Shown: positions 1-24,868 of the stretch, one piece after another
Numbering within the stretch: the first letter of the stretch is position 1
Layout of the letters: each line of letters starts with the position of its first letter
Source of the DNA: an uncultured Smithella sp.
GTDB taxonomy: Bacteria; Desulfobacterota; Syntrophia; Syntrophales; Smithellaceae
Reading direction: 5' to 3'
DNA: 63,913 nucleotides
NCBI GenBank assembly: GCA_964480875.1
Contig: CAYZRT010000004.1
Location: forward strand, 1-63,913
Notes under the pieces: model-generated
Databases searched by the model: none
The model's input: the letters and a program-made list of their open reading frames with translations, nothing else
Told to the model about the DNA's origin: nothing
Made by a program: the position numbers and the translations under genes

Positions 1-534
1 GCGCGATGTAAGCGAATCTTGTTCGGCATTGAAAGCGGAGTTAATGAAGTTTTAGCCGGTGTGGGTAAAGGGTATACAACGGATGATGTGAAGCGGGGGA
101 TCGTTGCTGCAAGGTCTGCAGGACTCGAAATCTCCGCTTTTTTTATGCTCGGACTTCCGGGCGAGACAAAAGAAACGGCAAAACAGACGATAGACTTTGC
201 GCTATCGCTGGACATTGATTTTGCGAAGTTTGCGATAACGATACCGCTTCCCGGTTCGGAACTCTATGATAATCTGGTGAAGCAGGGTAAAATTTCAGAA
301 CCGGAATGGGAAAGGTTTACAACCTTCAATCCCAATCCGGACTCACTTCCCTATATTCCCGAGGGTATGACGGGAAAAGAGCTTTTGCGGCTGCATCGGA
401 TGGCAAACGTGAAGTTTTATCTGCGTCCGAAAATCATATTCCGGCATCTTTTTGTGATCCGTTCAATCGGTTTGAAAATGATGTTTAATGGGGCGATGCT
501 GATATTAAAACAATTATTTAAGGGCGGGAAGTAA
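1..534 (+). CDS. B12-binding-type radical SAM protein, C-terminal portion (5' end outside the window)
   Basis: Frame 1 is open from the window edge to TAA 532-534. ILFGIESG and FMLGLPGETKET...IPLPGSELY match the C-terminal halves of the paralogs at 6551, 9321(-) and 16460. Confidence 0.8.
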   Translation, partial: ARCKRILFGIESGVNEVLAGVGKGYTTDDVKRGIVAARSAGLEISAFFMLGLPGETKETAKQTIDFALSLDIDFAKFAITIPLPGSELYDNLVKQGKISEPEWERFTTFNPNPDSLPYIPEGMTGKELLRLHRMANVKFYLRPKIIFRHLFVIRSIGLKMMFNGAMLILKQLFKGGK

Positions 535-2081
535 TGCGATTGCTGTTTATTAGACCGCCGAAATATATATGGCCCTACATGAATGAGCAGGACAACTATC
601 TGCTTCCTCAGGCGCTTGCCTGCCTTGGAGCGGAAACCAGACGGCAAGGTCATGAGGTCATCCTTTTGGATTGTATGCCGCTCAAGATAGGTTGGAAGAG
701 TCTCGAACAAAAAATAAGAGATCTTGCACCACAGGTAGTATTAGCGGGAGATTCGGAGACGCTGTACGCTCACGAAAGCGGCAGAGTATTTCAGATTGCT
801 AAATCCGTTTCAAAGAATATTTTTACAGTCGCGGGTGGCGTGCATTTTTCGTACACTTGTGAGGATGCTTTTTCAAAGTATCCCATTGATGCAATCGTAA
901 GAGGCGAAGGCGAAAAAACGCTTTCTGAACTTTTACAGACGTTGGAAGGTGGCGGTGATCTGACCAAGGTAAAGGGGCTCGCATTACCGGCCGGTGACGG
1001 TCGTGTGATATATACAGGTTATCGGGAATTAATTACCAACCTGGACGAACTTCCGATTCCTGCTTATGATTTGTTGCCGATGGATCGCTATGGGACGGCG
1101 CGCTATCTGTTTTCTCCGGGCGGTGTGACCATTCATCACAGTCGCGGATGCGTCAGCGGTTGCAGTTTTTGTGCGTGTTGGATTCAGATGGCTAAACGCG
1201 CAGGTGATCCGCCGAACGAGCAACTTTTCCCGCGCTGGCGCACCCGTTCCGTTGAACCCGTTGTTGATGAGATGGAACTTTTGCTAAAAAAATATGGTAA
1301 AAAATGTCTGGTGTTTGTGGATGATACTTGGAATGTCGACCCCGTGTGGAGCAACGGATTCGCCGATGAGCTACTGCGAAAAAAGCTTGGCGTGAACTGG
1401 TTTGCGTTTTTCCGCTCAGATTTTATGGTGAGAGACGAGGAATCAGGTTTGTTCGAGAAACTGATTGCGTCAGGGTTAACTCACATCTGTGTAGGTTTGG
1501 AAAGGGCAAATGATGAAGAGCTTGATAAGTTGGAGAAGCACAATTCAAATCCGGAATTGATGTTGTCATTCATCCCGAAGATGCGCAAAAAATACCCGTC
1601 GCTCTTTTTACAGACGACGTTTATCGTAGGGCTTAGGCAGGATACAAAGGAAAGCATGGAGCGACTGCTCAATTATGTTGAAAAGCTAAATCCTGACTAT
1701 CCCGCATTCCATCCGGTGACGCCCGTCCCCGGCACGCCGTTGTGGAAGGAAGCAAAGGGAAATGGATGGCTTGAGATAACGGATTTTGCAAAATACGATT
1801 GGATGACTCCGGTCATGCGCACAGATGCGATGACGCGCGAAGACTTGGAGTTAACGATTTGGGAGATGAACCGTCGCTATCTGAATCCGCTTCGGATTGC
1901 GCGGGGAATCTTTTCGCCGCGCAAATATCGTCGTCGGATGTATATGTGGTGGTTTGTGGTAAGCGTACGCGCAATTTTTGATTATTTGCTGGATCATCTG
2001 TTTATCCCACGCTCATCAAGGCGTGGCGAAAGTCTATCAGAGTATGTGGGATTAGTAAGACCCAAATGGTACAATAAATAG
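534..2081 (+). CDS. Class-B (cobalamin-binding domain) radical SAM enzyme
   Basis: The ATG overlaps the upstream stop (TAATG at 532-536). An N-terminal Rossmann-like B12-type domain (VVLAGDSE...VAGGVHFS...IVRGEGE) is followed by the CxxxCxxC motif HHSRGCVSGCSFCACW. Confidence 0.85.
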   Translation: MRLLFIRPPKYIWPYMNEQDNYLLPQALACLGAETRRQGHEVILLDCMPLKIGWKSLEQKIRDLAPQVVLAGDSETLYAHESGRVFQIAKSVSKNIFTVAGGVHFSYTCEDAFSKYPIDAIVRGEGEKTLSELLQTLEGGGDLTKVKGLALPAGDGRVIYTGYRELITNLDELPIPAYDLLPMDRYGTARYLFSPGGVTIHHSRGCVSGCSFCACWIQMAKRAGDPPNEQLFPRWRTRSVEPVVDEMELLLKKYGKKCLVFVDDTWNVDPVWSNGFADELLRKKLGVNWFAFFRSDFMVRDEESGLFEKLIASGLTHICVGLERANDEELDKLEKHNSNPELMLSFIPKMRKKYPSLFLQTTFIVGLRQDTKESMERLLNYVEKLNPDYPAFHPVTPVPGTPLWKEAKGNGWLEITDFAKYDWMTPVMRTDAMTREDLELTIWEMNRRYLNPLRIARGIFSPRKYRRRMYMWWFVVSVRAIFDYLLDHLFIPRSSRRGESLSEYVGLVRPKWYNK

Positions 2082-2096
2082 TTTTGAAGGAGATAC

Positions 2097-3425
2097 ATGA
2101 TTAATTACCATAATACACCCGCCATTATTTATGTTCATCCTAAGACACCCATGTTGTTTCGATGTATGCTCCCTATGTCGGTGCCAGCTATTATTAATAG
2201 AATCTCCTATCCTGTGGTTGGCTATTATCCTGATGAATTGCGTTTAGTTGATTTAAATAAGGTGAAAATAGTTATTATGGACATTCATTGGTATCTTTCT
2301 TTGAACGGTGCGCTTGAACTTGCTGCGTACATTAAAGAAAAAAAAACAAATATTATTATTATCGCGGGTGGATTGACGGCAAGCCTTTTTGCAGACATTT
2401 TGGTGAAAAATACGCCCATTGATTATATTATTCGTGGGGATGGTGAGGTTCCAACAGCACGACAGGTTGATGCGTTGATAAATGACAAAAATATAGAAAC
2501 AATTCCAAATCTTGTAGGGAAACATGAATTTGTTACCCCGTGGTCATTTAAGTTATCTCAAGAAGAAATAAATTTTAATAAGTATTATGATATTAATTTT
2601 TTTCCGTCGTTTAAGCGCGACACATATAAAATACATCAATACAACTCCGGTTGGCCGGTATCGATTTTTCCGTATTTGGCGTCATTTAGGGGGTGTCCGG
2701 TTGACTGTAAAAATTGTCTTGGCGGATTGTCTGAGCAACAAATACAGTTTAGGCGCGGACCGGTTTTTCGCACAGCGGAGAATGTGAAAAGAGATTTAGA
2801 ATTTTTATCAGACAATAAGAGCATTACTTTTGCAAATAATCATATAGATTACGTTGCTTTTTATGAAGATAAGGATGTGCAGTCTTTATTTTCACAGTGT
2901 TATAAATTAAAAATTCAACATGATTTCATAAAGGTGCCGCAAAAGCATATTTTAGAAATTTTTTTGAACAGTTTTTCAGGCGGTACAATTTGTTTTAGTA
3001 TGGACACATACCATTCAACATCAGAGATAATTGAAGATCCGGGAAAACTTATCGAAGCAATTAATATGGTTAAAGCAAAAAAATGGTACTATCCATTACT
3101 CTATTATGCGAGAAGATATCTTAAATCAAACAAAGAATACAGGGCAGCATTGAAATATATCGTTAAAAAAACACATTGTAGCCTGTATTATTCTGACTTT
3201 TTTTGGGGAGATGCTCCTTTTCCAAATAAGGAAGGGAATGGCGATATGTCGGAGTATGCCCGCTGTATGGCTATGTCACAAGGCCAAGGAAATAAATTCA
3301 AGGCGCCTAAACTTTTAGCAAACGGTGGTTTATTGGTGGATCGTTTTCTTCCGTGTTTGTCAATCCCTATACGACAATTAATTTACAAATGTCAAAATAA
3401 TTTTCCCTTATCTTTTTTTAAGTAA
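2097..3425 (+). CDS. Divergent radical SAM protein with a B12-binding-like N-domain
   Basis: IIIAGGLTAS...YIIRGDGE is followed by FRGCPVDCKNCLG (CxxxCxxC). It is much more diverged than the other paralogs and lacks their GxPGET C-terminal block. Confidence 0.65.
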   Translation: MINYHNTPAIIYVHPKTPMLFRCMLPMSVPAIINRISYPVVGYYPDELRLVDLNKVKIVIMDIHWYLSLNGALELAAYIKEKKTNIIIIAGGLTASLFADILVKNTPIDYIIRGDGEVPTARQVDALINDKNIETIPNLVGKHEFVTPWSFKLSQEEINFNKYYDINFFPSFKRDTYKIHQYNSGWPVSIFPYLASFRGCPVDCKNCLGGLSEQQIQFRRGPVFRTAENVKRDLEFLSDNKSITFANNHIDYVAFYEDKDVQSLFSQCYKLKIQHDFIKVPQKHILEIFLNSFSGGTICFSMDTYHSTSEIIEDPGKLIEAINMVKAKKWYYPLLYYARRYLKSNKEYRAALKYIVKKTHCSLYYSDFFWGDAPFPNKEGNGDMSEYARCMAMSQGQGNKFKAPKLLANGGLLVDRFLPCLSIPIRQLIYKCQNNFPLSFFK

Positions 3426-3461
3426 AAGATATTCTTGCTAAATCATCAATGGCGTTATTGT

Positions 3462-4274
3462 CTAAGAAGGCTGCCTATGGATGATTACGCGATCTACGAA
3501 CGGAGGAATTTCGCATGGCGGATTTTCATAATAGACGGTATTACCCCGGTAAATAAATCGCGTATTGTCACCGTGCGGAGTGAGCCGAAAATAACGTTCT
3601 GCGCAATGGTGTCGGCAGCTATAAATGCCAGGTATGCGTCCTGGACTCGTCAGCCGTTCGACGGGCTGGCAGAACCTTGTACTCGTTATATATACATATG
3701 GGGTGTGGAGACTGTACTCAAAGTCTGTCACGCCCACGGTGCCAAAACCCTGTTGCGGATTTTGTATTTCAATTCTCGACACATGTCGTTCTTTTAAAAA
3801 CCTTGCGAAAATTGGATTATTAACGGATATATGTTGAAACTCCGCTCGTTTTTTTTCAAGTTCCGACCCGTCGAACGCTGTGTCAAGTATTTCCATAATC
3901 CTGGGGTCACTTCGCTGAAAAGCGAGTATTATACCGGCGACAGGTTTAAGTCCTTTGAAATCTGTTGCAATCGTCGTGAGAAATCCGAGATCGTTAGCGA
4001 TGACCTCGGAACCTGGCGCTAAAGAAGTGAGCGTTTCAGCCAATGCAATTGCGTGTCCTATATGCGACTCCGTCAAATACGGCGTAACAAGGTGAAGACT
4101 AAGACCGCGCTCCTGCGCCGTCCAAATAAATCCAGCCAGTTCTTCACGGGTCGGTAAAGCCTCCTGACAAAACCCGCTGCCAACGTACACTCCGGTGAAT
4201 TCAGCTTTTCCGCAAGGCATCTCTGCCGCTCTCTCGATAAATATTTTTTTATCCGGTTCTTTCTTTTCAGCCAT
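3462..4274 (-). CDS. U32-family protein, small UbiV-like partner
   Basis: 270 aa. GVYVGSGFCQ...LHLVTPYL...VIANDLGF...VAGIILAF follows the layout I recall for UbiV (VIYLGEAVCS...VLSTLAL...IEASDLGV...VAGHALN). It lies 30 nt downstream of the larger U32 gene. Confidence 0.55.
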   Translation of the reverse strand: MAEKKEPDKKIFIERAAEMPCGKAEFTGVYVGSGFCQEALPTREELAGFIWTAQERGLSLHLVTPYLTESHIGHAIALAETLTSLAPGSEVIANDLGFLTTIATDFKGLKPVAGIILAFQRSDPRIMEILDTAFDGSELEKKRAEFQHISVNNPIFARFLKERHVSRIEIQNPQQGFGTVGVTDFEYSLHTPYVYITSTRFCQPVERLTSPGRIPGIYSCRHHCAERYFRLTPHGDNTRFIYRGNTVYYENPPCEIPPFVDRVIIHRQPS

Positions 4275-4304
4275 CTGCTTTCAGGATTTCGCTCCGCTCA
4301 ATTT

Positions 4305-5432
4305 TTATTTGGTAATTTTATCAATCCCAAAGTTTATAACCTCTTTCTTATCCGGCTCGCAGTAGTAGCAGAATCCTTCGCCGCAGTAATTGGGATAGAG
4401 ATCCATTCTCATTTTTTTAACTGTATTCGTGTATTCGAGGCGGGACGGATTGCTTTTTAGCAAGGCTAGGGCGTCGCGCACCATGCGCGTGTCCGCACAC
4501 TTACGAGACGTTAGATTCTGGCGTCCAACAATCTTTACCGACTCTACGCCGGGCACCTGCACGATGTCATACAGTGCACAAAGACCGCATGCCTCGCGAA
4601 AATTATTCAGTGTATCAAAAAATCTGAAATTTAGTTCTGATGCGAGTACCTTGCCGTCTACCGCGTTTACCAAATCCGCTTTATATTCCCTGCAGCACAT
4701 CATTCCATTGCAGGCCGCAAACCTGTCCTGAATATGGTTAATTAGCCGATTTCGGTAAGTGCCGAAAAGGAAGGACATCTTGCGGCCAAGTAAACATTGT
4801 GCCAGCGCAGCCGCGTATGTAAACAAACCACCTTTCACCCTGTATGTTGCATGCTCGAATCGGCACAACGAATTCGGGAAATAACAGCGTTCTGACATTA
4901 TGAAAACTTCGAACCCGGTTTGGGGGCATGCCGCCGCCGTATCCGCGATCTCGCCTATGGTAAGATGCCGCGGCAGCGTAATTCGTGAAGCACCAAAATC
5001 GCGGTACAGCCGCACTGTATGAGAATTGAACGCCCCCCCGAACGTACTGATAATAACTTTTACACCAGGATATTTTTCATTCAAATAAGTAATCAACGCG
5101 ATATCGGCAACGATCAGGCCGTCAGCTCCGCAGGCGATGATCTTCTCAACCTCCGATTCAACCACCGAAAACTGTGCTTTCGTGTAGAACGCATTATAAG
5201 TAACGTATGTTCTCATTCCGTGCTGCCGCGCCGCCGCAACAATCTCAGACAGCTCATAGAAGTCTGAGAGATTTGCTTCCGGTACCTGCCGTGAATTCAA
5301 CGAAAACACGTTTGTATATTCCCGCTGCACTTCGCGGCGCATTATTCCACAGTATAGCTCTGTTGCGCCGGCCGCATGTAACGGTCCGACTTCGCTCAAA
5401 CTGTTTATAGGTGAAAGAATTTCCATATTCAT
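4305..5432 (-). CDS. U32-family protein, UbiU-like large partner
   Basis: 375 aa. The N-terminus MEILSPINSLSEVGPLHAAGATELYCG and the block GADGLIVADIALITYLNEKYP...ITLPRHLTIGEI...FEVFIMSERCYFPNSLCRFEH parallel UbiU (LEVFAFGSLCIMSEGRCYLSS). Confidence 0.75.
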   Translation of the reverse strand: MNMEILSPINSLSEVGPLHAAGATELYCGIMRREVQREYTNVFSLNSRQVPEANLSDFYELSEIVAAARQHGMRTYVTYNAFYTKAQFSVVESEVEKIIACGADGLIVADIALITYLNEKYPGVKVIISTFGGAFNSHTVRLYRDFGASRITLPRHLTIGEIADTAAACPQTGFEVFIMSERCYFPNSLCRFEHATYRVKGGLFTYAAALAQCLLGRKMSFLFGTYRNRLINHIQDRFAACNGMMCCREYKADLVNAVDGKVLASELNFRFFDTLNNFREACGLCALYDIVQVPGVESVKIVGRQNLTSRKCADTRMVRDALALLKSNPSRLEYTNTVKKMRMDLYPNYCGEGFCYYCEPDKKEVINFGIDKITK

Positions 5433-5489
5433 TCCATTTTTGAATAAGCTGTTCTGTTTATACTTTACATCTGGTTTTCCGCATTTCTG

Positions 5490-6260
5490 CTATGCCGGTC
5501 GTGCGGGCTTAGCTGTTTCATAACATATTGAAGCCCGCGATCTGGTTGTTCGGCAGTCAATTCCCAGTCCAGCCATCAAACCTGTGACCTTTTTTTCAGG
5601 GAGCGCGTTTCGTATCGAAAGCGCGAGCGCCGTTTCACCTTTGCTCGACAGCCCGATCCGATCCTTCATTTTCACATAAGCTGCATACCCTCTTGCAAGA
5701 AGCGATTCAGGATTCAAGTCGACAATAACAAGATTGCCGCCGGGTTTGAGTACGCGCCACATTTCCGAAATCATCCTGCGCGCGTCCTCGAAATGATGAA
5801 GAGACGCCTCCGAATAAACAAGATCGAAAACATCCGCAGCAAACGGCAGCGAATTGTCATCATTACGGACAAGTATCACCCGGGTGCCCATATTGGGTTT
5901 GTTCACCTTGGTTGCGAAACGGAGCATCTCCGGATCGATGTCGCAGCCCGTAACCAGAACGCTTTCTTTTGTGAGGCCGATTATTTGCTGTAACGTTAAC
6001 CCGGCACCGCATCCAACTTCCAGAACTGACATCGCATGACAGTGATTCATAAACCGGAGACATATCTTACGTGCATGACGCGAAGGGCGTTGTTTGTTCC
6101 TGTAAAGAAAAAATTCTTCTGTAGTCATCCCTTCTTTATTTATGATGCTCATTTGACCGATTTCTCCTATTTGACTTGCATTAACTTCTTTATAACATCC
6201 GCACATATGCGTTCTGTTAAAGATTATATATTCCCGCGCCGATTGAATTGTGACCCGCAA
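5490..6260 (-). CDS. Class I SAM-dependent methyltransferase (UbiE/Methyltransf_11-like)
   Basis: Motif I is VLEVGCGAGL, followed by VTGCDIDPEM and LKPGGNLVIVD. The real start may be the internal ATG at 6152 (MSIINKEG). Confidence 0.8.
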   Translation of the reverse strand: MRVTIQSAREYIIFNRTHMCGCYKEVNASQIGEIGQMSIINKEGMTTEEFFLYRNKQRPSRHARKICLRFMNHCHAMSVLEVGCGAGLTLQQIIGLTKESVLVTGCDIDPEMLRFATKVNKPNMGTRVILVRNDDNSLPFAADVFDLVYSEASLHHFEDARRMISEMWRVLKPGGNLVIVDLNPESLLARGYAAYVKMKDRIGLSSKGETALALSIRNALPEKKVTGLMAGLGIDCRTTRSRASICYETAKPARPA

Positions 6261-6550
6261 GCAGAATCTTATATAGAATTTCGCCCGCCGATATAATGGA
6301 ATAGATGACGGACTTCAAAAAGTCGGGTAGATAAAAATATTTTGCGGAGGAAAGTATAGGAAGTACGATTTTGTATGTCAACAATTTATTGCTAAAATGG
6401 AATTAATGGAATTAATAAACTTGTAATTCATTAGGTGACATGATAATTTCTCTAATAAAAAAATATAGATAAATAATTTCACGCTGTGGTCTCCGCCTCA
6501 GGGGAATAAACTGCATAAATGAATATCAGTATGAACTTATTTTTAAAAAC

Positions 6551-8005
6551 ATGAATAACACCCTCCCTAAAAAACATAGGGTATTATTGATCGTACCTGT
6601 TCCATCATCCAGATATAATCAATTTACCATCAATTATTATGCTCCAAATATCGGTTTGGCAAGCATAGCAGGGTATTTGATTGAAAAAAATATTGAAGTA
6701 GAAATTTTTGATGGAATTATTGATTCAAGCTTAAGAAATTTGTATAAAAAAATAGAAAGCTATACTCCAACACATATAGGAATTTCAGCTTTCACTTCAA
6801 ATATAAAATCGGCATGGAAGACAGCTCAAGCTATTAAAACTAAATTTAATCAAATCCCAATAACTATTGGGGGACTTCATGTATCAGCATTACCGGAAGA
6901 GTCGCTGGCAGAATGTCCTTATGTAGATTATGTCATCGTTGGCGAAGGCGAAGAGAGCTTCTATTCTTTATTGGAAAATATAAATACTCCACAAAATTTC
7001 AATAAAATAAAGGGGCTGGGCTACAGAATTAATTCAAAAATAATCATAAATCCTCCTTCCGATCATTATCATATAAATATGGATACTTTGCCTATGCCTG
7101 CTTGGCATTTATTCGATTGGGATAAATACAAGGAATACCCTTTCAGGGATAAGCATATCAATTCTAATCCTCATGAATTTCTTCTACAGACAACAAGAGG
7201 CTGTCCCTATTCATGTAAATTTTGTTCTCGTAATTTTGGGAATAAAGTCAGACAAAAATCACCTAATATAGCGGTTGATGAAATTTCAGTTTTGATAAAT
7301 TCCTTTAATGCAAAATATCTGCTTTTTGTGGATGAAACATTTACTATAAACAAAGAATATACAAAAAATCTTTGTAACCTTATTATTAAACGTGGTCTAA
7401 ACAAGAAGATCTCATGGTCCTGTGGAACTAGAATTGATAAATTGGATAAGGAAATATTAACTCTAATGAAAAATGCGGGATGCGTAAGTATTTTTGTGGG
7501 TTTGGAATCCGGATCACAAAAAATATTAAATTTAATAAATAAAGGTGTTAAAAAGAGCTGTTTTTCTAATGCGTTGAAGAATATAAAAGAACAGGGAATT
7601 AGTACAGTAACAAGTTTTATTTTGGGATTTCCTGGTGAAACCAAAGAAGATATAAAACAAACCATAGATTTATCACTTACTTTACCATTGGATTTTGTTT
7701 CATTTAATATTTTCACCCCGTTTCCAGGTTCAGAATTTTACAAAACCATATCTGTCTCAGATACTATCACTCTTAAAACACACGATTGGGATCGTTATGT
7801 AACACAAACTGGCTCATATCAGTTAAACCAGCCATCTATAAGAACAATAGATATTATTATATTGCATATACTTGCTTACTTAAGATTTTATCTTAGAAAA
7901 AATTGTTTTCATAAAATCTTTCAGATTATTAACATTAAAGTGCTATTTTATTTGCTAATAAATAAAATAACTGCAAAGATTTTTGCGGATCCCTATGAGG
8001 AATGA
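6551..8005 (+). CDS. Class-B (cobalamin-binding domain) radical SAM enzyme
   Basis: RVLLIVPVP...ITIGGLHVSALPEE...VIVGEGEE, then TTRGCPYSCKFCS, then FILGFPGETKEDIKQT...FTPFPGSEFY. Very AT-rich coding sequence. Confidence 0.85.
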   Translation: MNNTLPKKHRVLLIVPVPSSRYNQFTINYYAPNIGLASIAGYLIEKNIEVEIFDGIIDSSLRNLYKKIESYTPTHIGISAFTSNIKSAWKTAQAIKTKFNQIPITIGGLHVSALPEESLAECPYVDYVIVGEGEESFYSLLENINTPQNFNKIKGLGYRINSKIIINPPSDHYHINMDTLPMPAWHLFDWDKYKEYPFRDKHINSNPHEFLLQTTRGCPYSCKFCSRNFGNKVRQKSPNIAVDEISVLINSFNAKYLLFVDETFTINKEYTKNLCNLIIKRGLNKKISWSCGTRIDKLDKEILTLMKNAGCVSIFVGLESGSQKILNLINKGVKKSCFSNALKNIKEQGISTVTSFILGFPGETKEDIKQTIDLSLTLPLDFVSFNIFTPFPGSEFYKTISVSDTITLKTHDWDRYVTQTGSYQLNQPSIRTIDIIILHILAYLRFYLRKNCFHKIFQIINIKVLFYLLINKITAKIFADPYEE

Positions 8006-8048
8006 ATCGTAACCAACCTGGTACGACGTAACATTATATCTTGCGTAT

Positions 8049-8495
8049 TTATGGTAATATGATGTCTTGGCAATGTGTTACGTCCATATAGCGCAATTTG
8101 ATAAAAGTATAAATGAAAACACAAATGAATGTAGCAGTTACAAACATTGCGTTGGGAATTGGATTAAATAATAACCTGCAATAAACAATAAACAAATATA
8201 CTGCAAAGATGAATGTGATTTCTTTATTATACTTAACCATGCCGACCCATCCTATTATTTGCAGTATTGCCCGAACCCAAAATCCTATATGCATAGCCCA
8301 TTTTAAGTCATTTGAAAGAACAAGAATGAAAAGAAAAAAACCATACCATAGTTGCTCACGCGGCAGTTTTTTCTTAACAAAGAAATAAATGCAAAAAAAT
8401 ATGACGGTAGTATAAGACCAGCCGCCCATTAATAAAAATGGAGCAATATTGTCATTGATGTAGAATAGACTTAACGACCGCCAATTCATGTTCAT
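8049..8495 (-). CDS. Small polytopic membrane protein, unknown function
   Basis: 148 aa with about 4 hydrophobic helices by eye. It is third in a run of three small membrane ORFs on the minus strand. Confidence 0.55.
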   Translation of the reverse strand: MNMNWRSLSLFYINDNIAPFLLMGGWSYTTVIFFCIYFFVKKKLPREQLWYGFFLFILVLSNDLKWAMHIGFWVRAILQIIGWVGMVKYNKEITFIFAVYLFIVYCRLLFNPIPNAMFVTATFICVFIYTFIKLRYMDVTHCQDIILP

Positions 8496-8506
8496 TGCGG
8501 CAGTTT

Positions 8507-8929: not shown

Positions 8930-9047
8930 TCTCGACAGAAGACAGCAGAATGGCTACATAAATAATAACACCGCAAAAAATTAAAATAACAGAAAAAAGC
9001 AGAAGGTCTAAAATCATATTTTTTCTTTGCATTAATATTGGCCTCAA
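8850..9047 (-). CDS. Small (65 aa) two-helix membrane protein, hypothetical
   Basis: Two hydrophobic stretches (LLLFSVILIFCGVIIYVAILL, LTLLPLVLFFAI). Its position suggests translational coupling with the next ORF. Confidence 0.35.
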   Translation of the reverse strand: MRPILMQRKNMILDLLLFSVILIFCGVIIYVAILLSSVEIGLTLLPLVLFFAITYRINKTRQPHA

Positions 9048-9061
9048 ATTACTTATAATTT

Positions 9062-9288: not shown

Positions 9289-9320
9289 TTCGTATCTGAT
9301 ACCCTTTTTCGCTATAAATA

Positions 9321-11773: not shown

Positions 11774-13408
11774 ATGGATTTGCCGGAATTGTCATCAAAA
11801 GAATCCCCCTGCGCTGGATATAGACAGCGCGCTTATTGCTTCTTCAACCGATTAAATATCTTTGATCTATTGGTAATCATTATCTGCATAGCAAGTTTTG
11901 GATTCAGTTTAATTGAGTCGATGGTTAACGCGGATAATCAGCATTGGGGCGGCGTTTATTTACAGGCCCTGGATATTAAAAGAGGAGCAATGCCGCATTC
12001 CGAAGTAATGATTTTCCATGGATATATTCACGCGTTGATTCAAAGCGCTGCGTTAATATTATTTGGCGAAAGATTAATAAGCGTGGGAATAATCACGGGG
12101 CTATTTTATTCTTTTACGTTATTTCTTTCGTATTGTATTTTTTCCAGATTTATGAAAAAGAGTCTTGCCTTTATTGCCGTATTGTTAATCTTTTTAATTC
12201 ATCCTTACATTATTTATCCTTATCCTAATTATTTTGCCTATCCTTTTCAACTGCTGGCGCTTATTTTTTTTCTGCGATATCCGGAACAACATTTAAATGG
12301 TTTGCTGGCCGGATTTTTCCTGGGCTTGTCGGTACTTGCGCGGTATTCTTCGGTTATAGCGGTTCTTCCGCCCTTTATAAGTCTTCTTCTATGGGATTTC
12401 TTTGCCATGAAAGAAGAGAGAAAAAACGCCATTAATAAAATCGTTACAGTAGCCTGCGGTTTTCTTGTTCTTTTGGCTTCTTTTTTTTTATATCTCTTCG
12501 TTAACTCCGCCCTGGATGATTTCTATAATCAGAATAAGATACTAATCACTATCCTGGGAAGAGTCAGTGACGCTGATACCTGGCTTAATTTTTTAGCCTC
12601 TGTGTTTCAAGTTGTCCCGAGTTACGCTTCCGATTTACGTGGTAAGCTCTTTACTTTCATATTAATAGTCTGCCTGTTTATACCGGTTCGGGAAATCATC
12701 AGGAAAATATCAGGGGGTGTAACAAAGTCGGTATATGCCCGTTATGATGTAATAGCTGTGTGTCTTCTGGCTATTTTCGGGTATTTGAATTCGGTGCACG
12801 TTTATGAAACATTACGACTGATTAACGGCGCGTCTTTAGGCGTTGGAATATGCGTTCTGGTTTTCTATAATATTTTCAAGAATGCAGGAAAAAAAATAAA
12901 ATATGTAATGTTATTTTTGATTATTCTTTTATTTTTACTTTTATCATCCAGCCTCTTGTTCAGCAGAACCACGTCATCCTATTACCCGTGGAGCCTGAAT
13001 GTTTTATTGCGTGATGGAGTGACGAACAAAACTATCGGAATATTTAAAGGTAAAATTCTTACCAAAGAATACAATGATTTTTATCAGGAAGTATTTAATG
13101 TCATTGCGCCGTATAAAAATTGTTGTTACATACTTAATTATACGCAGGATGTAGTAGCTTTTTTGGTCAATGATTTGCCTCGCCTCCAAATATCGGGTGT
13201 GCACTTTCCCGGTATTGACGATCTTTCTAAACAGGAGAAATTAATTCATCAAAACAAGGCAGTGATACTTTCATTTATAAAATTGGATTTGCCTGGTTAC
13301 TCTTTAATATTTGCCAGGAGATGGCCGGAGGAAATACCGTGGATGGGTGGCGGGTATTTATTCATATATGCGCCAAAACTCCAAGCATGCGGTATTCAAT
13401 CCTTGTAA
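11774..13408 (+). CDS. Large polytopic membrane protein, GT-C-like (ArnT/PMT-type) candidate
   Basis: 544 aa. The first ~400 residues contain more than 10 hydrophobic segments by eye, followed by a soluble C-terminal domain. No catalytic motif could be verified by eye. Confidence 0.5.
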   Translation: MDLPELSSKESPCAGYRQRAYCFFNRLNIFDLLVIIICIASFGFSLIESMVNADNQHWGGVYLQALDIKRGAMPHSEVMIFHGYIHALIQSAALILFGERLISVGIITGLFYSFTLFLSYCIFSRFMKKSLAFIAVLLIFLIHPYIIYPYPNYFAYPFQLLALIFFLRYPEQHLNGLLAGFFLGLSVLARYSSVIAVLPPFISLLLWDFFAMKEERKNAINKIVTVACGFLVLLASFFLYLFVNSALDDFYNQNKILITILGRVSDADTWLNFLASVFQVVPSYASDLRGKLFTFILIVCLFIPVREIIRKISGGVTKSVYARYDVIAVCLLAIFGYLNSVHVYETLRLINGASLGVGICVLVFYNIFKNAGKKIKYVMLFLIILLFLLLSSSLLFSRTTSSYYPWSLNVLLRDGVTNKTIGIFKGKILTKEYNDFYQEVFNVIAPYKNCCYILNYTQDVVAFLVNDLPRLQISGVHFPGIDDLSKQEKLIHQNKAVILSFIKLDLPGYSLIFARRWPEEIPWMGGGYLFIYAPKLQACGIQSL

Positions 13409-13582
13409 ATGAATTCAATACATTGATCCTGTGAATTTCTATGAGGCATGAAAATGGTTTACGTCTAGATGTCGGAGATGCTTCTGATAAAGCAAAGGTT
13501 TTTTGAAATTGAATTTTTGCTAATAATGCAACCAAAAGAACTGATGAACATTGCGCCATTATGAAATTTTGTTAGTGATAGT

Positions 13583-15238
13583 ATGAAAAAAATCAATGTG
13601 CTTATATTAATCATATTGCCAGCAGTTCTTGTATTGACCGTTTCACTTTTAAAATATTCTCGTGGTTCGTATTGGTTGGTTCACAATTCTGATCCTGGAT
13701 ATATTTATTTATTAAACTCTCTTGCATTGGCTGAATCAAAAAAAGCGCCAACCACTGGTCATCCTGGCACAACCCTTCAAATAGCGGGGGCAGTTATAAT
13801 GAAAACTTTTTATGCTCTTGACTATTCTAAAAAGGAAAGTCTGAAAATCGAGGTTCTTAAGAATCCTGAATTCTATTTAAATATTATACACATTATTTTA
13901 ATAACTTGTAATGCTCTGCTGCTATTTATCATTGGCGTGATAACATTTAATTTAACAAAAAATATTTGGCTGAGTATTTTGTTGCAGTTTTCACCGTTCA
14001 TTTCCACGGTCATGCTGAATCTGGGTTTCGTATGGATTTCTCCCGAACCACTTCTGATTTTTTCCAGTCTGTTGTTTGTGTTGATTCTTGTAAAAATTGT
14101 ATTGAATAAAAATTATTCCGAATCAACTCACTGGTATATGATAGCCTTTGCGTTTATTTCCGGTTTTGGGATCGCTACGAAGATGACATTCCTTCCTTTA
14201 CTGATGATTCCTCTTTTTATTTTGCCTAAATTACGACACAGGATTGGTTTTATTTTTTTGGCCGGCTTAAGTTTTGTTTTATGGACATGGCCGATTATTC
14301 CGCAATATGATATTTTATTTAAGTGGTATTGGCGTATCCTTACGCATACAGGTTATTATGGCCTCGGTGAACAAGGCATAATTGATTCTGGGATTTTTTT
14401 TCGCAATATAAGTAATTTATTTTTAGGGAATCCTTTATTTTTTTTCGTCTGGTTTTTTGCTCTGAGTTTTATTCTCATTATTTTATTGTTGAGACATAAC
14501 AAATTCATTGAGAAAAAAGTCTTGGATAATACATCTTTTAAGGTATTAATTGCCTCGCTGTTTGTGCAATTGTGTGCCGTTTTGATTTTTTCTAAGTCGG
14601 GTTACGACTACTATTATTTGCCTGTGATGAACCTTTCTGCATTAATGATTTTTTTGATGATTGTTTATTTACAGGAGATTGAAGTCAAGTTTCTAAGTAG
14701 TACAGGAACTGTTATGATTATATGTATATTCTTGTTTTTCGGCAGTGTTTGGAGAGCGGCTGAAATCAAAGATGTATTTATAAAAAATCTGCAAAATAAG
14801 CGGGAAGGACAGGGGGTCTTTCAAGCGCTGGAGAATGATTATAAAAATTATTTTAAAATTTCTTGCTATCGTTGCTCATCTCCGATTTGTGCACTATCTT
14901 TCGGTAATTTCTTTATTAATAATGGCCTGTATTCCGAATCTCTTCAAGATATTTATGGGGAAGCATATTTTTATGATAGACGTGAAGGGAAATTTCATTC
15001 ATGGACTAAAGAGTTTACTGTTGAGGATATAATTATTCAAAGCCAGGGTAATAGAATATTAATTCATGCCCCCTTTTTTATTAAAGAACATGGCTTCATG
15101 CTGCCGACGAGGACGGGTTCAATTTTGCATCTAAAGGATGTCTTTGGGGGAGAATTTGAATCTATTTATATGCTCAAAGGAATTGCAATAGGTGCTGGAA
15201 AATTTCAGCCGTTTAGTTTGTCGCCTGAACCGAAATGA
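13583..15238 (+). CDS. Large polytopic membrane protein, GT-C-like (ArnT/PMT-type) candidate
   Basis: 551 aa. An early periplasmic-loop acidic motif (HNSDPGYIYLLNS) follows the first TM helix, then many TM segments and a soluble C-terminal domain. Confidence 0.55.
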   Translation: MKKINVLILIILPAVLVLTVSLLKYSRGSYWLVHNSDPGYIYLLNSLALAESKKAPTTGHPGTTLQIAGAVIMKTFYALDYSKKESLKIEVLKNPEFYLNIIHIILITCNALLLFIIGVITFNLTKNIWLSILLQFSPFISTVMLNLGFVWISPEPLLIFSSLLFVLILVKIVLNKNYSESTHWYMIAFAFISGFGIATKMTFLPLLMIPLFILPKLRHRIGFIFLAGLSFVLWTWPIIPQYDILFKWYWRILTHTGYYGLGEQGIIDSGIFFRNISNLFLGNPLFFFVWFFALSFILIILLLRHNKFIEKKVLDNTSFKVLIASLFVQLCAVLIFSKSGYDYYYLPVMNLSALMIFLMIVYLQEIEVKFLSSTGTVMIICIFLFFGSVWRAAEIKDVFIKNLQNKREGQGVFQALENDYKNYFKISCYRCSSPICALSFGNFFINNGLYSESLQDIYGEAYFYDRREGKFHSWTKEFTVEDIIIQSQGNRILIHAPFFIKEHGFMLPTRTGSILHLKDVFGGEFESIYMLKGIAIGAGKFQPFSLSPEPK

Positions 15239-15395
15239 GAAATAGTGCAAAACACTCTTTAATTTATGTTGTTATATTGTATTTAAATCATCGTAATAAA
15301 TATGATTCAATCTTATTTAAAATACATTATTTTGTTTTTCTTTTCATTATTTCCGATTTTTTGTTGAAACAACGGAGGAGAATCTTTTATTATTT

Positions 15396-16451: not shown

Positions 16452-16459
16452 GGGAATTA

Positions 16460-17920
16460 TTGTTTAAGTCTGATCCGAAAGGATTTTGCATTCAGATGTC
16501 GAAAGTACTTTTAATCAAGCCAAGATTTTTAGGATTAGAGTTTCCATTAATAACGCAGCCGCTGGGGCTTATGTATATTGGTTCTATGCTGAAAAAAGCC
16601 GGGCATGAGCCTAAGATTCACGACGGTGCCCTGGATGATAAAGACCTTCATGTCCTTCGGCGTATTCTTAAAGAATGGCCACCGGACTTTATCGGCATCA
16701 GTATCATTATTACTGAGGTGGAGCAGACAAAAAGAATTATGGAGCTTATCAGGGCAATTTGCCCTGAAGTTCCCATCACGTTTGGTGGTCCCTGGCCGTC
16801 GGCCAATCCTGAAAAATCGATCAAGGAATTTGGTGCGGACTTTGTTGTTATGGGAGAGGGCGAGTTGGTATTTCCCGAGCTGATAGATGCAATGAACCAA
16901 AAATTCCCGACGGATTCGATTGCCGGGACAGCATCATTGTGTAATGGTCATGTAAAAATCAATCCGGGGCGGTTATTGACCGAAGATGAGTTGAATAATC
17001 TTCCGTTTCCCGCGTGGGAGCTGCTGGATCATAAATTGTATGCGAAAATGCATTCCAAACCCGCCGTGGGCTGCCGTCCTTACATGGCGATGATCACGTC
17101 GCGCGGCTGTCCGTACCGATGTTCTTATTGTTACCAGATCATGGGTAAAACCTTCAGAAAAAGGCCGGCACATTCGGTTCTTACGGAGATAGAGGAACTT
17201 TATTTTCAGTACGGATTCAAAGAATTCGAGATCATTGACGACTGTTTTAATCTTGATCGAGAAAGAATGATTGCCATCCTCACAGGAATCAGGAATAAAT
17301 TTAATGATGTCAAACTGCACTTTCCTAACGGATTGAGAGCGGACCTGCTTGAGCCGCAGGATATGGCTCTTTTTAAACAGGCGGGAACCGTATCTGCCGC
17401 ATTTGCCATAGAAACAGCCAGTCCCCGGCTGCAGAAGATGATTCACAAAGATCTGAATATAGAGAAGGCTGATCTAACGATGAAAGCTTCCGCTCAGGCA
17501 GGAATTTATTCGACCGGCTTTTTCATGCTCGGATTTCCGACAGAAACCTATGAAGAAGCATCTTCCACCGTACAATGTGCCGTCCATTCGTCCCTGCATC
17601 GGGCAATCTTTCTGCGCGTCATACCGTTTCCCGGGACTGAACTGGCGGACATGGCCGCGGATATTCTTGAAAATAAGCAGGAGATCGTTGCTCCACATTA
17701 TATGAATTATTATAATAATTCATATAATGTTTCCGCAATGTCGGATAAGGAACTGCGCAATATCTTTCAACGCGCTTACAGGGCCTTCTATTTTAATCCC
17801 AAGAGAATATTGAGCATTGCGATTCATCATCCGAAATTTATGGCGCTTCCCTACTATGCTTTTTTGACGATGATCAGGGCTCTGCCGAGGATGGGCCATC
17901 ACGCCTTGGTCAGACATTGA
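16460..17920 (+). CDS. Class-B (cobalamin-binding domain) radical SAM enzyme
   Basis: VPITFGGPWPS...VVMGEGE, then TSRGCPYRCSYCYQ, then FMLGFPTETYEEA...IPFPGTELA. The likely start is ATG 16496 (MSKVLLIKP). Confidence 0.85.
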   Translation: MFKSDPKGFCIQMSKVLLIKPRFLGLEFPLITQPLGLMYIGSMLKKAGHEPKIHDGALDDKDLHVLRRILKEWPPDFIGISIIITEVEQTKRIMELIRAICPEVPITFGGPWPSANPEKSIKEFGADFVVMGEGELVFPELIDAMNQKFPTDSIAGTASLCNGHVKINPGRLLTEDELNNLPFPAWELLDHKLYAKMHSKPAVGCRPYMAMITSRGCPYRCSYCYQIMGKTFRKRPAHSVLTEIEELYFQYGFKEFEIIDDCFNLDRERMIAILTGIRNKFNDVKLHFPNGLRADLLEPQDMALFKQAGTVSAAFAIETASPRLQKMIHKDLNIEKADLTMKASAQAGIYSTGFFMLGFPTETYEEASSTVQCAVHSSLHRAIFLRVIPFPGTELADMAADILENKQEIVAPHYMNYYNNSYNVSAMSDKELRNIFQRAYRAFYFNPKRILSIAIHHPKFMALPYYAFLTMIRALPRMGHHALVRH

Positions 17921-17977
17921 CAATGAATCATAATAAAAAAGATTAATATAAGAATTTATGACCTGTATTTCATTGAC

Positions 17978-19936
17978 ATGCAGGATACTTCTTCATATAA
18001 TTTTAACGTGAAAACCAACTTCCTTGTTCAACAAAGAGAGAACGATAATCTTCAAAAAAAGCACAATGACCTTGTGTTTATTTTGGTGATTATTATTACC
18101 GCTGTCGTGTTTTCCGGTAGCCTGAAACTTGAATGGACGAACTGGGATGACAATTTATTGGTATACAATAATCCCTCGGTAAGTGAAGCAAGATTTGAGG
18201 ATATTTTCACCCGGCCTGCCGACTACAACACGTATAACCCTTTAGTAGTGTCTTTTTTTGTTCTTGAGTGGAAGTTGGTTAAAGACAAACCATTTCTTTA
18301 TCATCTGAACAACTATCTGTTGCATCTTTTCTGCACCGCGCTGGTCTTGATTTTTTTACGAAAAATCGGACTTTCAATATGGTGGAGTGGTTTTGCGGCA
18401 TTACTTTTCGGCATTCATCCTATGAGAGTAGAGTCCGTTGCGTGGATTTCCGAACGAAAAGATGTTCTTTACTCGCTTTTTTATCTGGCGGCATTACTTG
18501 CCTATGTTCGCTACATTTCTAACGAGAAAAGAGGTCAGTTGCTTTTGACTTTGCTTTTTTTTGTGTTGTCACTTCTATCTAAGATTCAGGCTGTGGCATT
18601 GCCTTTTGTTCTGGTATTGCTGGATTTGTATTTTAAAAGAAAAATAGGCGTGAAAACCATCTTAGAAAAAGGTGTTTTTTTCATCATAGCTTTTGTTGTG
18701 GGTTTTTTGGGGTCAACCGTTTTCTTTAAAAATGCTTTCGTTACAACCGACAGTAAGGCTATTGTAAATACTTTTAATTACTTTGGACAGGTTGTGCTGG
18801 GCGGTTATGCTTTCACGATCTACCTTTTAAAATCTGTTGTTCCTTTTGCGTATTCTGCCACATATCCAACTCCCTCATCACTTCAGATACAGCATTTGAT
18901 TGGCGCATTGATAACCGTTTTGATTTTAGCAGGCGCTATAGCTTTATGGCGCAAATTCAAGTTTGTCACATTCGGCTTAATGTTTTTCAGCTTTAATATA
19001 ATGTTTTTGCTCATGCCTTTTCAGGGCAACGAAACAGCCTTTCTTAATGATCGCTATGTCTATTTTGCCTATATAGGTTTATTCTTCATCATGGCTATGG
19101 GAATGCAACAATTATCAGAAAGATTATCATCGTATCGCAAGCCAATTATATCGTTTGCTGTGGCTCTGCTGGTTATCTATGGTATCATGACAATAAATTA
19201 TATTCCCGTCTGGACGAACAGCAATACGCTTTGGACATACGTTATTGATAAATATCCCGGTAAAATGGCGATCGCGCACCTAAACAGAGGAAACTACTGG
19301 TACAGCAAAAATCAAAAGGATAAGGCCTTGGATGACTTCAGTTTGGCCATCGAAATTAATCCTGAATTTTCCAGCGCCTATGCCAATAGAAGTCTTGTCT
19401 ATCTTGACAAAGGCGAGACGGAAAAAGCGCTTAAGGATTATAACCGTTATCTGGAATTGTTACATCCCTTTGATACGAAAGGGAATAGGTTAAATTTATC
19501 ATTGTCGGATTCTTTCAGTCACAGGGGTTCAATTTACAGCAGAATGGGTCAGTACGAAAAAGCGCTTGCTGATTTTCAAAAGGCCATCGAACTGGATCCT
19601 TTCAATTCGGATATTTATTTTAAAAGGGCTCTTATTTATATGCAGTTGCATGAATATGACAAGGCCGTTAGGGATTTCAACCTCTGTCATCAAGCCGATC
19701 CGGCGAATGCCGATGTCATCAATAACAGAGGAGTATGTTATCTTCGTTCCGGTAATTTTCAATCCGCGCTTGATGATTTTAACAAGGCTATTTTATTCAA
19801 CGGCGCTAATCCTTCTTATTATGTAAACAGAGCCACTGTATATTATAAATTAGGACGTCTGGTTGAAGCGAGGCAGGATGCCCAAACCGCGAAAAAATTA
19901 GGCGCTGCCATTGATCCTCCTTCGGGAAATCGCTGA
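17978..19936 (+). CDS. Multi-pass membrane protein with C-terminal TPR repeats (TMTC/DUF1736-like GT-C candidate)
   Basis: The N-terminal ~430 aa are highly hydrophobic. The C-terminus has consecutive TPR-like repeats (AHLNRGNYWYSKNQKDKALDDFSLAIEINP..., AYANRSLVYLDKGETEKALKDYNRYLEL..., YFKRALIYMQLHEYDKAVRDF...). Confidence 0.7.
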   Translation: MQDTSSYNFNVKTNFLVQQRENDNLQKKHNDLVFILVIIITAVVFSGSLKLEWTNWDDNLLVYNNPSVSEARFEDIFTRPADYNTYNPLVVSFFVLEWKLVKDKPFLYHLNNYLLHLFCTALVLIFLRKIGLSIWWSGFAALLFGIHPMRVESVAWISERKDVLYSLFYLAALLAYVRYISNEKRGQLLLTLLFFVLSLLSKIQAVALPFVLVLLDLYFKRKIGVKTILEKGVFFIIAFVVGFLGSTVFFKNAFVTTDSKAIVNTFNYFGQVVLGGYAFTIYLLKSVVPFAYSATYPTPSSLQIQHLIGALITVLILAGAIALWRKFKFVTFGLMFFSFNIMFLLMPFQGNETAFLNDRYVYFAYIGLFFIMAMGMQQLSERLSSYRKPIISFAVALLVIYGIMTINYIPVWTNSNTLWTYVIDKYPGKMAIAHLNRGNYWYSKNQKDKALDDFSLAIEINPEFSSAYANRSLVYLDKGETEKALKDYNRYLELLHPFDTKGNRLNLSLSDSFSHRGSIYSRMGQYEKALADFQKAIELDPFNSDIYFKRALIYMQLHEYDKAVRDFNLCHQADPANADVINNRGVCYLRSGNFQSALDDFNKAILFNGANPSYYVNRATVYYKLGRLVEARQDAQTAKKLGAAIDPPSGNR

Positions 19937-24867: not shown

Positions 24868-24868
24868 T

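Follow-up and report, generated by a model that had tools for sequence, protein, structure and literature searches.

Why should seven radical S-adenosylmethionine (SAM) genes lie within 18 kb of a single bacterial contig, and do they belong to one system? We addressed this question in a stretch of 63,913 nucleotides (hereafter the window) from an uncultured Smithella sp. (GenBank assembly GCA_964480875.1, contig CAYZRT010000004.1, positions 1 to 63,913 of the forward strand). The gene set for positions 1-19936 was obtained from open reading frame (ORF) calling and Pfam/NCBIfam scans, and it bears out the count given in a preliminary description of this DNA: five full-length genes of the cobalamin (B12) type (B12a to B12e), one B12-type C-terminal fragment and one SPASM-type gene (Table 1). 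The substrates of characterized cobalamin-dependent radical SAM enzymes are antibiotics, peptides, tetrapyrroles, methyl-coenzyme M reductase (MCR) and lipids. Here, the region from position 1 to ~31.8 kb is best explained as a cell-surface glycan locus of mosaic composition in a Smithella-like anaerobe (Syntrophales); the names of homologues indicate Smithella/Syntrophaceae. The association of radical SAM genes with glycan genes is real and conserved, and is not yet a demonstrated pathway. Our preferred interpretation, to which we give about an even chance, is that the radical SAM enzymes tailor a nucleotide- or polyprenyl-phosphate-linked sugar, and that GT-C membrane glycosyltransferases then move the product onto a periplasmic glycan or protein.

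This interpretation is carried by synteny around the SPASM-type gene, which anchors a conserved module and has 147 relatives at E-values up to 1e-20. Our locus survey covered seven independent contexts. The core of the module consists of a methyltransferase and B12d (MT2-B12d), transcribed divergently from GTC1, the SPASM gene, B12e, a GT-C protein with a TPR domain (GTC_TPR), a flavoenzyme resembling UDP-galactopyranose mutase (UGM), an SDR epimerase and heptose genes. Smithella-type contigs (75-89% identity) share these core genes, MT2 being found in locus L006 alone. Across these relatives (loci L003-L006), core genes are kept at 57-96% identity; orthologues in L003 and L006 are 74-78% identical for B12d and 57-91% for GTC1, those of B12e are 77-88% identical, and that of MT2 is 96% identical in L006 and absent from L003. 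In the Smithella-type contigs, B12e is followed by an additional B12-type gene (in L006 a tandem B12e paralogue), and L003-L005 have two further radical SAM genes. Gene order, which the preliminary description had proposed to compare among related genomes, is conserved for the core, so the alternative of scattered paralogues without shared synteny does not apply to it.

The association also reaches well beyond the Smithella relatives. A SPASM-type gene together with two to four B12-type genes and glycosyltransferase and sugar-nucleotide genes recurs in three distant lineages, including Nitrospina. In these loci, the SPASM proteins are 30-42% identical to that of the window and are accompanied by three or four B12-type genes in a different gene order, together with a UGM-like or related flavoprotein, sugar-nucleotide enzymes, and GT-C (PMT, AftD) and/or GT2/GT4 glycosyltransferases. 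The order in L008 is PMT, GT2, SPASM, B12, B12, an unknown ORF, UGM-like, Wzx, CDP-alcohol phosphatidyltransferase, B12, B12. In L009/L096, where radical SAM and sugar genes are interleaved with short gaps, it is AftD-type GT-C, GT2, NTP-transferase, epimerase, B12, GT2, B12, UGM-like, B12, SPASM and two large membrane proteins. The Nitrospina locus (L010) holds a flavoprotein, three B12-type genes, SPASM, a UDP-glucose dehydrogenase, GT4/GT2 and, like L008, a Wzx flippase. A UGM-like flavoprotein is found in three of the four lineages that show the SPASM-B12-glycan association; its counterparts are present in L003-L006, L008, L009 and L096. The small GT2 proteins beside GT-C genes in L008 and L009 find their best matches in AglJ, PpgS and ArnC, which are polyprenyl-phosphate sugar synthases. 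As a control, we drew loci with a generic motif from the SPASM alignment (TGGEP[LF][LI]RxD), which returned mostly non-orthologous radical SAM genes (23-30% identity): a B12-type gene lay within 10 kb in four of 80 loci around non-orthologous SPASM/MoaA-like genes, whereas the B12-linked orthologue lineages have three to five B12-type genes in every long locus.

Outside this module, the block is variable. GC content at third codon positions (GC3) ranges from 0.24 to 0.52 per gene in the block, against 0.52-0.64 in core-metabolism genes, and L003-L006 are without B12a, B12b, the methyltransferase-U32-U32 trio, B12c, the frameshifted membrane gene and mem2. The genes at 1-3425, 6551-8005 and 13583-15238 are strain-variable accessories with patchy GC, of which B12c is present in L091/L092 and absent from L003/L006. 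The earlier proposal that the whole of 1-19936 forms one system is therefore not upheld, given the independence of the U32 trio, the absence of several genes from the nearest core relatives and the GC3 range. Mosaic composition is typical of surface-glycan loci. It could also be taken to mean that the region is a recombination hotspot holding unrelated cassettes (radical SAM operons, the U32 trio and glycan genes), with most radical SAM genes unrelated to the glycan genes. Such a fortuitous mosaic would fit the GC3 range, the lack of B12a, B12b, B12c, mem2 and the frameshifted membrane gene in L003/L006, the damage to one membrane gene, the demonstrable independence of the trio and the IS-like DUF4372 gene directly left of the window in L091/L092. 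We nevertheless consider it unlikely, since the SPASM gene, B12d and B12e retain their GT-C, mutase and sugar neighbours across relatives of 57-96% identity, the association is rebuilt in another gene order in three distant lineages, and B12-type genes are rare in the control loci.

Table 1. Predicted genes of the radical SAM block and the adjoining sugar genes (window coordinates).
Feature	Position	Strand	Remarks
Partial radical SAM, 177-aa C-terminal part of a 477-aa B12-binding radical SAM protein	1-534	+	Runs off left window end; accessory cassette; Pfam Radical_SAM, C-terminal part
B12a, B12-binding radical SAM, 515 aa	534-2081	+	Accessory; translationally coupled to preceding gene
B12b, divergent B12-type radical SAM-like, 442 aa	2097-3425	+	Accessory; GC3 0.31
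U32V, UbiV-like partner of U32 protein, 270 aa	3462-4274	-	Independent trio
U32U, Peptidase_U32/UbiU-like, 375 aa	4305-5432	-	Independent trio
MT1, UbiE-like class I SAM methyltransferase	5490-6260	-	First gene of trio; Pfam Methyltransf_11/25 and Ubie_methyltran
B12c, B12-binding radical SAM, 484 aa	6551-8005	+	Accessory; GC3 0.24
Polytopic membrane gene, ~269 aa, frameshifted near 8500	8049-8929	-	ORFs sm1 and sm2 (8049-8495, 8507-8929)
Hydrophobic ORF, 60-65 aa	8850-9047	-	Kept in L091
B12d, HpnJ-like B12-binding radical SAM	9321-10781	-	Core
MT2, class I SAM methyltransferase	10765-11445	-	Core; upstream of B12d; Pfam
GTC1, PMT_2-type GT-C membrane glycosyltransferase, 544 aa	11774-13408	+	Core
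mem2, predicted GT-C-fold membrane protein, 551 aa	13583-15238	+	Accessory
SPASM-type radical SAM, 351 aa	15396-16451	+	Core; anchor of conserved module
B12e, B12-binding radical SAM	16460-17920	+	Core
GTC_TPR, PMT/TMTC-like GT-C domain (~residues 1-430) and C-terminal TPR domain, 652 aa	17978-19936	+	Core; TPR Pfam matches
UGM-like flavoenzyme, probable nucleotide-sugar pyranose-furanose mutase	20175-21497	+	Amino_oxidase/GLF Pfam matches
NDP-sugar epimerase/dehydratase, HddC-GmhB fusion, HddA-like kinase, GmhA isomerase	21564-25462	+	GDP-D-glycero-D-manno-heptose-type pathway (predicted)
GT2 glycosyltransferase, candidate polyprenyl-phosphate sugar synthase	26091-26897	+	Pfam Glycos_transf_2
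Third class I methyltransferase	27125-28024	+	Outside 1-19936

At the level of domains, the radical SAM assignments are largely confirmed. The SPASM-type protein matches Pfam Radical_SAM with 99 bits, and the SPASM-like C-terminus noted earlier is supported in part: Pfam SPASM is missed narrowly (21.2 bits vs a cutoff of 21.5), five of the seven canonical cysteines of the pattern Cx9-15Gx4C...CxxCx5Cx3C are present, and the family alignment conserves C262-x12-G275-x4-C280 and C313xxC316xxxC320. The motif CxxxCxxC occurs in this ORF and in all five full-length B12-type ORFs. B12a, B12c, B12d and B12e have B12-binding and Radical_SAM domains that both exceed the Pfam gathering thresholds, and thus show the class B architecture (PF02310 followed by PF04055 with CxxxCxxC). 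The partial protein shows it through its orthologue, which is intact in L091/L092 (477 aa, CPFRCKFC at residue 209, 169 of 177 residues identical), a relative with 93% DNA identity across window positions 1-9067. The preliminary description had listed six such ORFs; five full-length ones and the fragment can be accepted as B12-type, with the qualification that B12b is divergent and its domain scores lie below threshold. B12b has CPVDCKNC at residue 200, 23 bits for B12-binding and a top match to TIGR04190 (63 bits); the Pfam scan gave it no Radical_SAM match and a PDB sequence search found no relative. The six B12 paralogues are ~23-33% identical to one another and separate deeply in a neighbour-joining tree; judged from these sequences, recent duplication is excluded.

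The best-scoring curated models for these proteins are those of lipid and tetrapyrrole enzymes, all at a distance. B12a (B12-binding 51.7 bits, Radical_SAM 50.2 bits, CVSGCSFC at residue 206) has BchE as its top NCBIfam match (198 bits vs a cutoff of 481), and B12c (Radical_SAM 94.9 bits, B12-binding 70.9 bits, CPYSCKFC) scores 218 bits against the same cutoff. HpnJ is the best-scoring model for B12d (224 bits vs 578) and for the partial 477-aa protein, while B12e reaches 137 bits against the ladderane-associated TIGR04072 (cutoff 360) and no radical SAM protein exceeds 106 bits against HpnR (cutoff 650). TIGR04295 ("B12_rSAM_oligo"), which we presume may denote a similar context, is matched by window proteins at 45-96 bits (cutoff 400). 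Assignments as hopanoid, BchE or ladderane enzymes were rejected because the scores stay under the model cutoffs and the pathway genes are absent from the surroundings. From the lengths at which relatives are called (466-475 aa), B12d probably starts at 10733, and the start of B12e is probably at 16499. The C-terminal block FxLGxPGET...PxPGxE, reported earlier as shared by four paralogues, is present as described and is generic to BchE/HpnJ-type enzymes, so it is not specific to this cluster. All B12-type proteins except B12b have a C-terminal (F/Y)Y(L/F)xP...I motif followed by ~25 mostly hydrophobic residues. These tails could serve for membrane association, which would fit a lipid-linked substrate.

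The same matches would also be expected if the radical SAM enzymes methylated, cyclized or cross-linked a membrane lipid or the polyprenyl carrier, in the manner of HpnP/HpnR, GrsA/B, Tes or the ladderane enzymes, and the glycan genes added a head group. In addition to the top sub-threshold matches (HpnJ, BchE and TIGR04072), a START-domain protein encoded at 28171-28857, the CDP-alcohol phosphatidyltransferase of L008 and the hydrophobic or amphipathic C-terminal tails read from the sequences of all six B12 paralogues, the partial one included, lend themselves to this explanation. Every lipid-family model nevertheless scores below half its cutoff, and the window island and the related loci yielded no genes for the synthesis of squalene/hopene, fatty acids, ether lipids or isoprenoids, squalene-hopene cyclase and hpn genes included. 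The recurring partners are instead sugar-nucleotide and glycosyltransferase genes, with the furanose-mutase-like gene in three of four lineages. We therefore regard lipid tailoring as rather improbable. Of the envelope lipid or glycan tailoring put forward in the preliminary description, the glycan half gains support from the core synteny with GT-C, mutase, epimerase and heptose genes and from its recurrence in three distant lineages, whereas the lipid half is without direct support, in that lipid-synthesis genes are lacking and the HpnJ, BchE, HpnR and ladderane models are far below cutoff. HpnJ (hopanoid cyclitol ether) and the calditol synthase Cds are proposed to contract the ring of a lipid-linked sugar (PMC13459092). 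HpnJ is the best model for two of the window proteins and a lipid-anchored sugar is proposed as substrate here too; the differences are the low HpnJ score of B12d and the lack of hopanoid/GDGT (glycerol dialkyl glycerol tetraether) genes here, and the mechanisms of HpnJ and Cds are themselves unproven.

The glycan reading draws further on the membrane proteins. The three polytopic proteins described earlier (544, 551 and 652 aa, one with TPR repeats) were all recovered. GTC1 matches Pfam PMT_2 (29.6 bits vs a cutoff of 26.1) and has ~11-13 hydrophobic segments. mem2, for which the Pfam scan gave no match, belongs to a family of 1848 representatives in which D37-P38, after the first transmembrane segment, is invariant. 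Its AlphaFold2 (AF2) model (predicted local distance difference test, pLDDT, 90.7) gives it a GT-C fold: the best 21 PDB fold matches are all GT-C proteins (AglB, ArnT, DPY19, STT3, PglB, Pmt4 and Emb), and these matches are modest (E-values of 7e-4 to 9e-2 and template modelling, TM, scores of at most 0.5, with 0.47-0.50 for ArnT). Relative to L006, mem2 is an insertion (window 13389-15348) between flanks that are 89% identical at the nucleotide level; L006 instead has the tandem B12e paralogue (84% nucleotide identity). In the GTC_TPR family, N55-W-D-D58, H147-P, E152 and E159-R-K161 are invariant, and the AF2 model of the window protein has a pLDDT of 88.6. Members of this family carry the JGI name "protein O-mannosyl-transferase", and we take them to resemble the eukaryotic TMTC enzymes. 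The likeness to PMT/TMTC O-mannosyltransferases lies in the polytopic N-domain, the DD motif in the first loop, the HP...E...ERK pattern and the C-terminal TPR domain, and PMT_2 is matched by five of seven distant N-domains of the family; the differences are that the family is bacterial, with no characterized member found, and that the window protein itself has no PMT_2 match. Profile-profile comparisons among the three GT-C candidates gave nothing significant, and PDB sequence searches with GTC1, mem2, the GTC_TPR N-domain and U32U returned nothing useful. On this combined evidence we infer that all three polytopic proteins are of the GT-C type, and the use of polyprenyl-phosphate-linked donors would follow from the fold and from the GT2 proteins of L008 and L009.

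A perfect sigma-70 consensus (TTGACA-17-TATAAT, 12/12, plus strand) at 17973-18001 overlaps the annotated ATG of GTC_TPR at 17978, and pLDDT stays below 50 for the first 18 residues of the protein. The annotated start may be incorrect, or an internal promoter may be present.

Sugar-nucleotide genes adjoin the radical SAM block in the Pfam/NCBIfam scans, in keeping with the preliminary description. The UGM-like flavoprotein aligns over its full length with the eukaryote-type UDP-galactopyranose mutase of PDB entry 4dsg (E-value 3e-29) and falls below the UGM equivalog cutoff (59.9 vs 303.75 bits). GmhA, HddA, GmhB and HddC domains are encoded together, each below its curated cutoff (113/209.45 for GmhA, 167/600 for the HddA-like GHMP kinase, and 175/178 for GmhB and 110/300 for HddC in the fusion protein); from these domain assignments, GmhA, the HddA-like kinase and the HddC-GmhB fusion are predicted to form a GDP-D-glycero-D-manno-heptose-type pathway. 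The island contains a second gene of the pyranose-furanose mutase type in addition to the UGM-like one, which is kept with the radical SAM module: a canonical bacterial Glf on the opposite strand at 29650-30768, which passes the UGM equivalog cutoff with 376.5 bits.

These components suggest the following order of events. GmhA, the HddA-like kinase and the HddC-GmhB fusion would, on homology, produce an NDP-heptose, which the SDR protein and the UGM-like flavoenzyme may remodel, for example by epimerization or dehydration and by pyranose-to-furanose conversion. A GT2 protein would place a sugar on polyprenyl phosphate. The SPASM- and B12-type radical SAM enzymes would modify unactivated carbons of the nucleotide- or lipid-linked sugar, and they would act before export because they require cytoplasmic SAM and reductant. 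The reactions might be class-B C-methylation, or AprD4- or HpnJ-like dehydration or ring rearrangement, with the class I methyltransferases adding O- or N-methyl groups. After flipping, the GT-C enzymes could, as their fold suggests, pass the product to a periplasmic glycan, and the TPR-bearing GT-C protein may use a protein acceptor. The extra B12-type enzymes (1-3425 and 6551-8005) and mem2 would diversify the product. In its architecture the locus resembles systems of three-component periplasmic glycosylation, in which a polyprenyl-phosphate-sugar synthase, a flippase and a GT-C enzyme act together (Gtr, ArnC/ArnT, GT136 pentofuranose and mycobacterial DPA/AftD-Emb systems; PMC11127046). 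Shared features are the GT-C proteins, the polyprenyl-phosphate-synthase-like GT2 proteins beside GT-C genes in the related loci, a furanose-mutase-like enzyme with epimerases and a strain-variable locus. In contrast, three to seven radical SAM genes are interleaved here and none is known from those systems, and no flippase was recognized here.

Several points weigh against the proposed tailoring of carrier-linked sugars. No window radical SAM protein reaches any curated NCBIfam cutoff; this and the lack of a match in the literature agree with the earlier judgement that no known pathway can be assigned. Everything past domain identity is guilt by association. Among the scanned window genes in 1-32 kb, no initiating phosphoglycosyl transferase, Wzx/Wzy or ABC exporter was recognized, and the GT2 of the window matches Dol-P-hexose transferase, AglJ and ArnC weakly. 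In the PDB fold search with the full GTC_TPR model, TPR matches dominate and the membrane domain is uninformative. SPASM homologues of 41-43% identity in L095 and L011 have no B12-type partner (for L011, as far as the contig reaches), and some neighbours in the window may, in view of the patchy GC3 and the strain-to-strain gene turnover, have been juxtaposed by recombination and not by function. The L095 and L011 homologues still adjoin envelope-sugar genes, namely a Mur ligase and GT9 in L095 and an NTP_transferase-CofD-GT2 fusion in L011. The L011 gene (4405-7851, downstream of the 43%-identical SPASM homologue) encodes a 1148-aa fusion of HAD phosphatase, NTP_transferase, CofD-like and GT2 domains; the contig is labelled as a Methanosarcinales metagenome-assembled genome.

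AprD4, GenK/GenD1 and HpnJ/Cds provide precedents for radical SAM action on sugars. Enzymes of the AprD4 type possess a B12 domain, yet do not use B12 for methylation. GenK and GenD1, both C-methylases, and the diol dehydratase AprD4, which has a B12-like domain, share with the window proteins an architecture in which B12-binding precedes the radical SAM domain, as well as NDP-sugar and class I methyltransferase neighbours. The window proteins differ in their low sequence similarity, their sub-cutoff model scores and their setting, which is an envelope glycan locus with GT-C genes and not an antibiotic cluster. Such precedents could also favour a small-molecule product derived from sugars (aminoglycoside, cyclitol or nucleoside type) in place of an envelope polymer. 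AprD4, an apramycin enzyme, is the closest PDB entry to both B12d and B12e, the characterized class-B sugar C-methylases GenK and GenD1 belong to aminoglycoside pathways (PMC4340712; PMC4039129), and neither polymerase nor flippase was recognized in the window. We give this explanation little credence: the three GT-C-fold proteins are counted as integral to the core, and their known relatives act periplasmically with polyprenyl-phosphate donors; L008 and L010 each carry a Wzx flippase; and positions 1-32 kb hold no 2-deoxy-scyllo-inosose synthase, aminotransferase, resistance or exporter genes. Modification of a ribosomal peptide or surface protein by the SPASM and B12 enzymes, followed by glycosylation by the TPR-bearing GT-C, is very improbable, for while SPASM and B12 radical SAM pairs are typical of clusters for peptides made on the ribosome and modified after translation (RiPPs), sub-threshold matches to ApyD and TIGR03975 exist, TPR-bearing PMT/TMTC-like GT-C proteins act as protein O-glycosyltransferases in eukaryotes and the 60-65-aa ORF at 8850-9047 is conserved, that ORF encodes a hydrophobic membrane peptide and no leader-core precursor, a protease, a leader-binding (RRE) domain and an exporter are all lacking, scores against the RiPP models stay far below cutoff (160 vs 750 and 125 vs 282) and gene calling in the distant loci gave nothing that resembles a precursor. 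A RiPP cluster was accordingly rejected, with neither precursor nor accessory genes found.

Our literature searches returned no description of cobalamin-type radical SAM modules in surface-glycan loci, and the words "glycan", "polysaccharide" and "sugar" never occur in a 2026 review of cobalamin-dependent radical SAM enzymes. If the tailoring of carrier-linked sugars is correct, a conserved radical SAM module in GT-C/furanose/heptose loci would bring the surface glycans of bacteria within the range of radical chemistry, and new sugar structures would be predicted in poorly studied syntrophs, Nitrospina and relatives. The SPASM protein, B12d and B12e would then offer enzymologists defined orthologue groups to work on. 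A broader version, which we advance tentatively and think somewhat unlikely, is that anaerobes of several phyla use a SPASM enzyme, several cobalamin-type radical SAM enzymes and a UGM-like mutase to build radical-tailored (C-methylated, chain-extended, deoxygenated or carbocyclic) carrier-linked sugars, which GT-C enzymes install on surface glycans or glycoproteins, with strain-specific radical SAM cassettes acting as a new source of antigenic diversity at the surface.

The UbiU/UbiV-like pair recognized earlier is real, and with MT1 it forms a separate module. U32U matches Pfam PF01136 with 91 bits and belongs to a rare family (31 proteins) with invariant C183, C190, C282 and C285. U32V, which had no match in the Pfam scan, has four conserved cysteines (C36, C201, C219 and C223), and its family aligns with that of U32U in HHalign (probability 91%, E-value 1e-6). 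In every one of the loci L091-L094, the U32 gene is followed by U32V and preceded by MT1, and MT1 also lies upstream of it in a JGI contig; as relatives are called at ~216 aa, MT1 probably starts near 6140. The trio is intact in three other lineages (58-63% identity; 9283-11868 in L093 and 7468-9933 in L094), where it sits in housekeeping surroundings next to PPDK and a small FGE-sulfatase-like gene, and no radical SAM or glycan genes surround it there. It lies between radical SAM operons in just the window and its 93% relative. The synteny in the three other lineages thus makes the trio an independent module, and its membership in the radical SAM system was rejected.

By analogy, the MT1-U32U-U32V trio probably encodes an O2-independent hydroxylase and a methyltransferase that act in that order on their substrate. 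UbiU/V, TrhP and RlhA use prephenate as oxygen donor (PMC10990095). What the trio has in common with UbiU-UbiV and UbiE/UbiG, and with TrhP and RlhA (PMC10990095; PMC6747719), is a U32 protein with a shorter cysteine-rich partner, a UbiE-like methyltransferase and an anaerobic host. It differs in its cysteine spacing, the rarity of the family, its position outside a ubiquinone context and a UbiU score of 90 bits against a cutoff of 440; with no ubi genes nearby, U32U and U32V are not identified as UbiU and UbiV themselves. The methyltransferase-U32-U32 operon is a candidate for a new O2-independent hydroxylation/methylation pathway.

Two counts in the preliminary description had to be revised. 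It placed three class I methyltransferases within the block; just two, MT1 and MT2, lie in 1-19936, and the third is found downstream of the GT2 gene (Table 1). Likewise, two of its three small membrane proteins, sm1 and sm2, are halves of one frameshifted gene, the third being the 60-65-aa ORF. The 209-aa ORF called in L091 (92.8% nucleotide identity) is continuous and joins the C-terminal part of sm2 to the whole of sm1, and the frameshift near 8500 is either a pseudogene mutation or an assembly indel. The fused 269-aa protein, for which the Pfam scan gave no match, is a possible flippase.

Searches of the window for Rfam families (e.g., cobalamin or SAM riboswitches) and tRNA genes found none, and in a promoter/terminator scan terminator-like sites were no denser than background. 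At the right edge of the island, the START (lipid-binding) domain gene is accompanied by a Kdo/WaaP-like kinase gene on the opposite strand (to 29633), which hints at a lipopolysaccharide-core or glycolipid connection. From ~32 kb on, GC is higher and the genes are those of acyl-CoA metabolism: positions 33030-52415 encode acyl-CoA dehydrogenases, three HGD-D (2-hydroxyacyl-CoA dehydratase/benzoyl-CoA reductase-like) subunits and an MFS transporter, followed by an AMP-ligase at 54066-55688, and the 33030-52415 block fits syntrophic acyl-CoA metabolism. On the other side, the sequence of L091 (11866-12465) and L092 (11037-11636) that corresponds to the left of the window holds genes for a methyltransferase (298 aa), the IS-like DUF4372 protein and an epimerase, and the same flank has a strong PMT_2 GT-C match (530 aa, 73 bits). 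The cluster therefore runs on leftward in these relatives, and the window truncates the locus.

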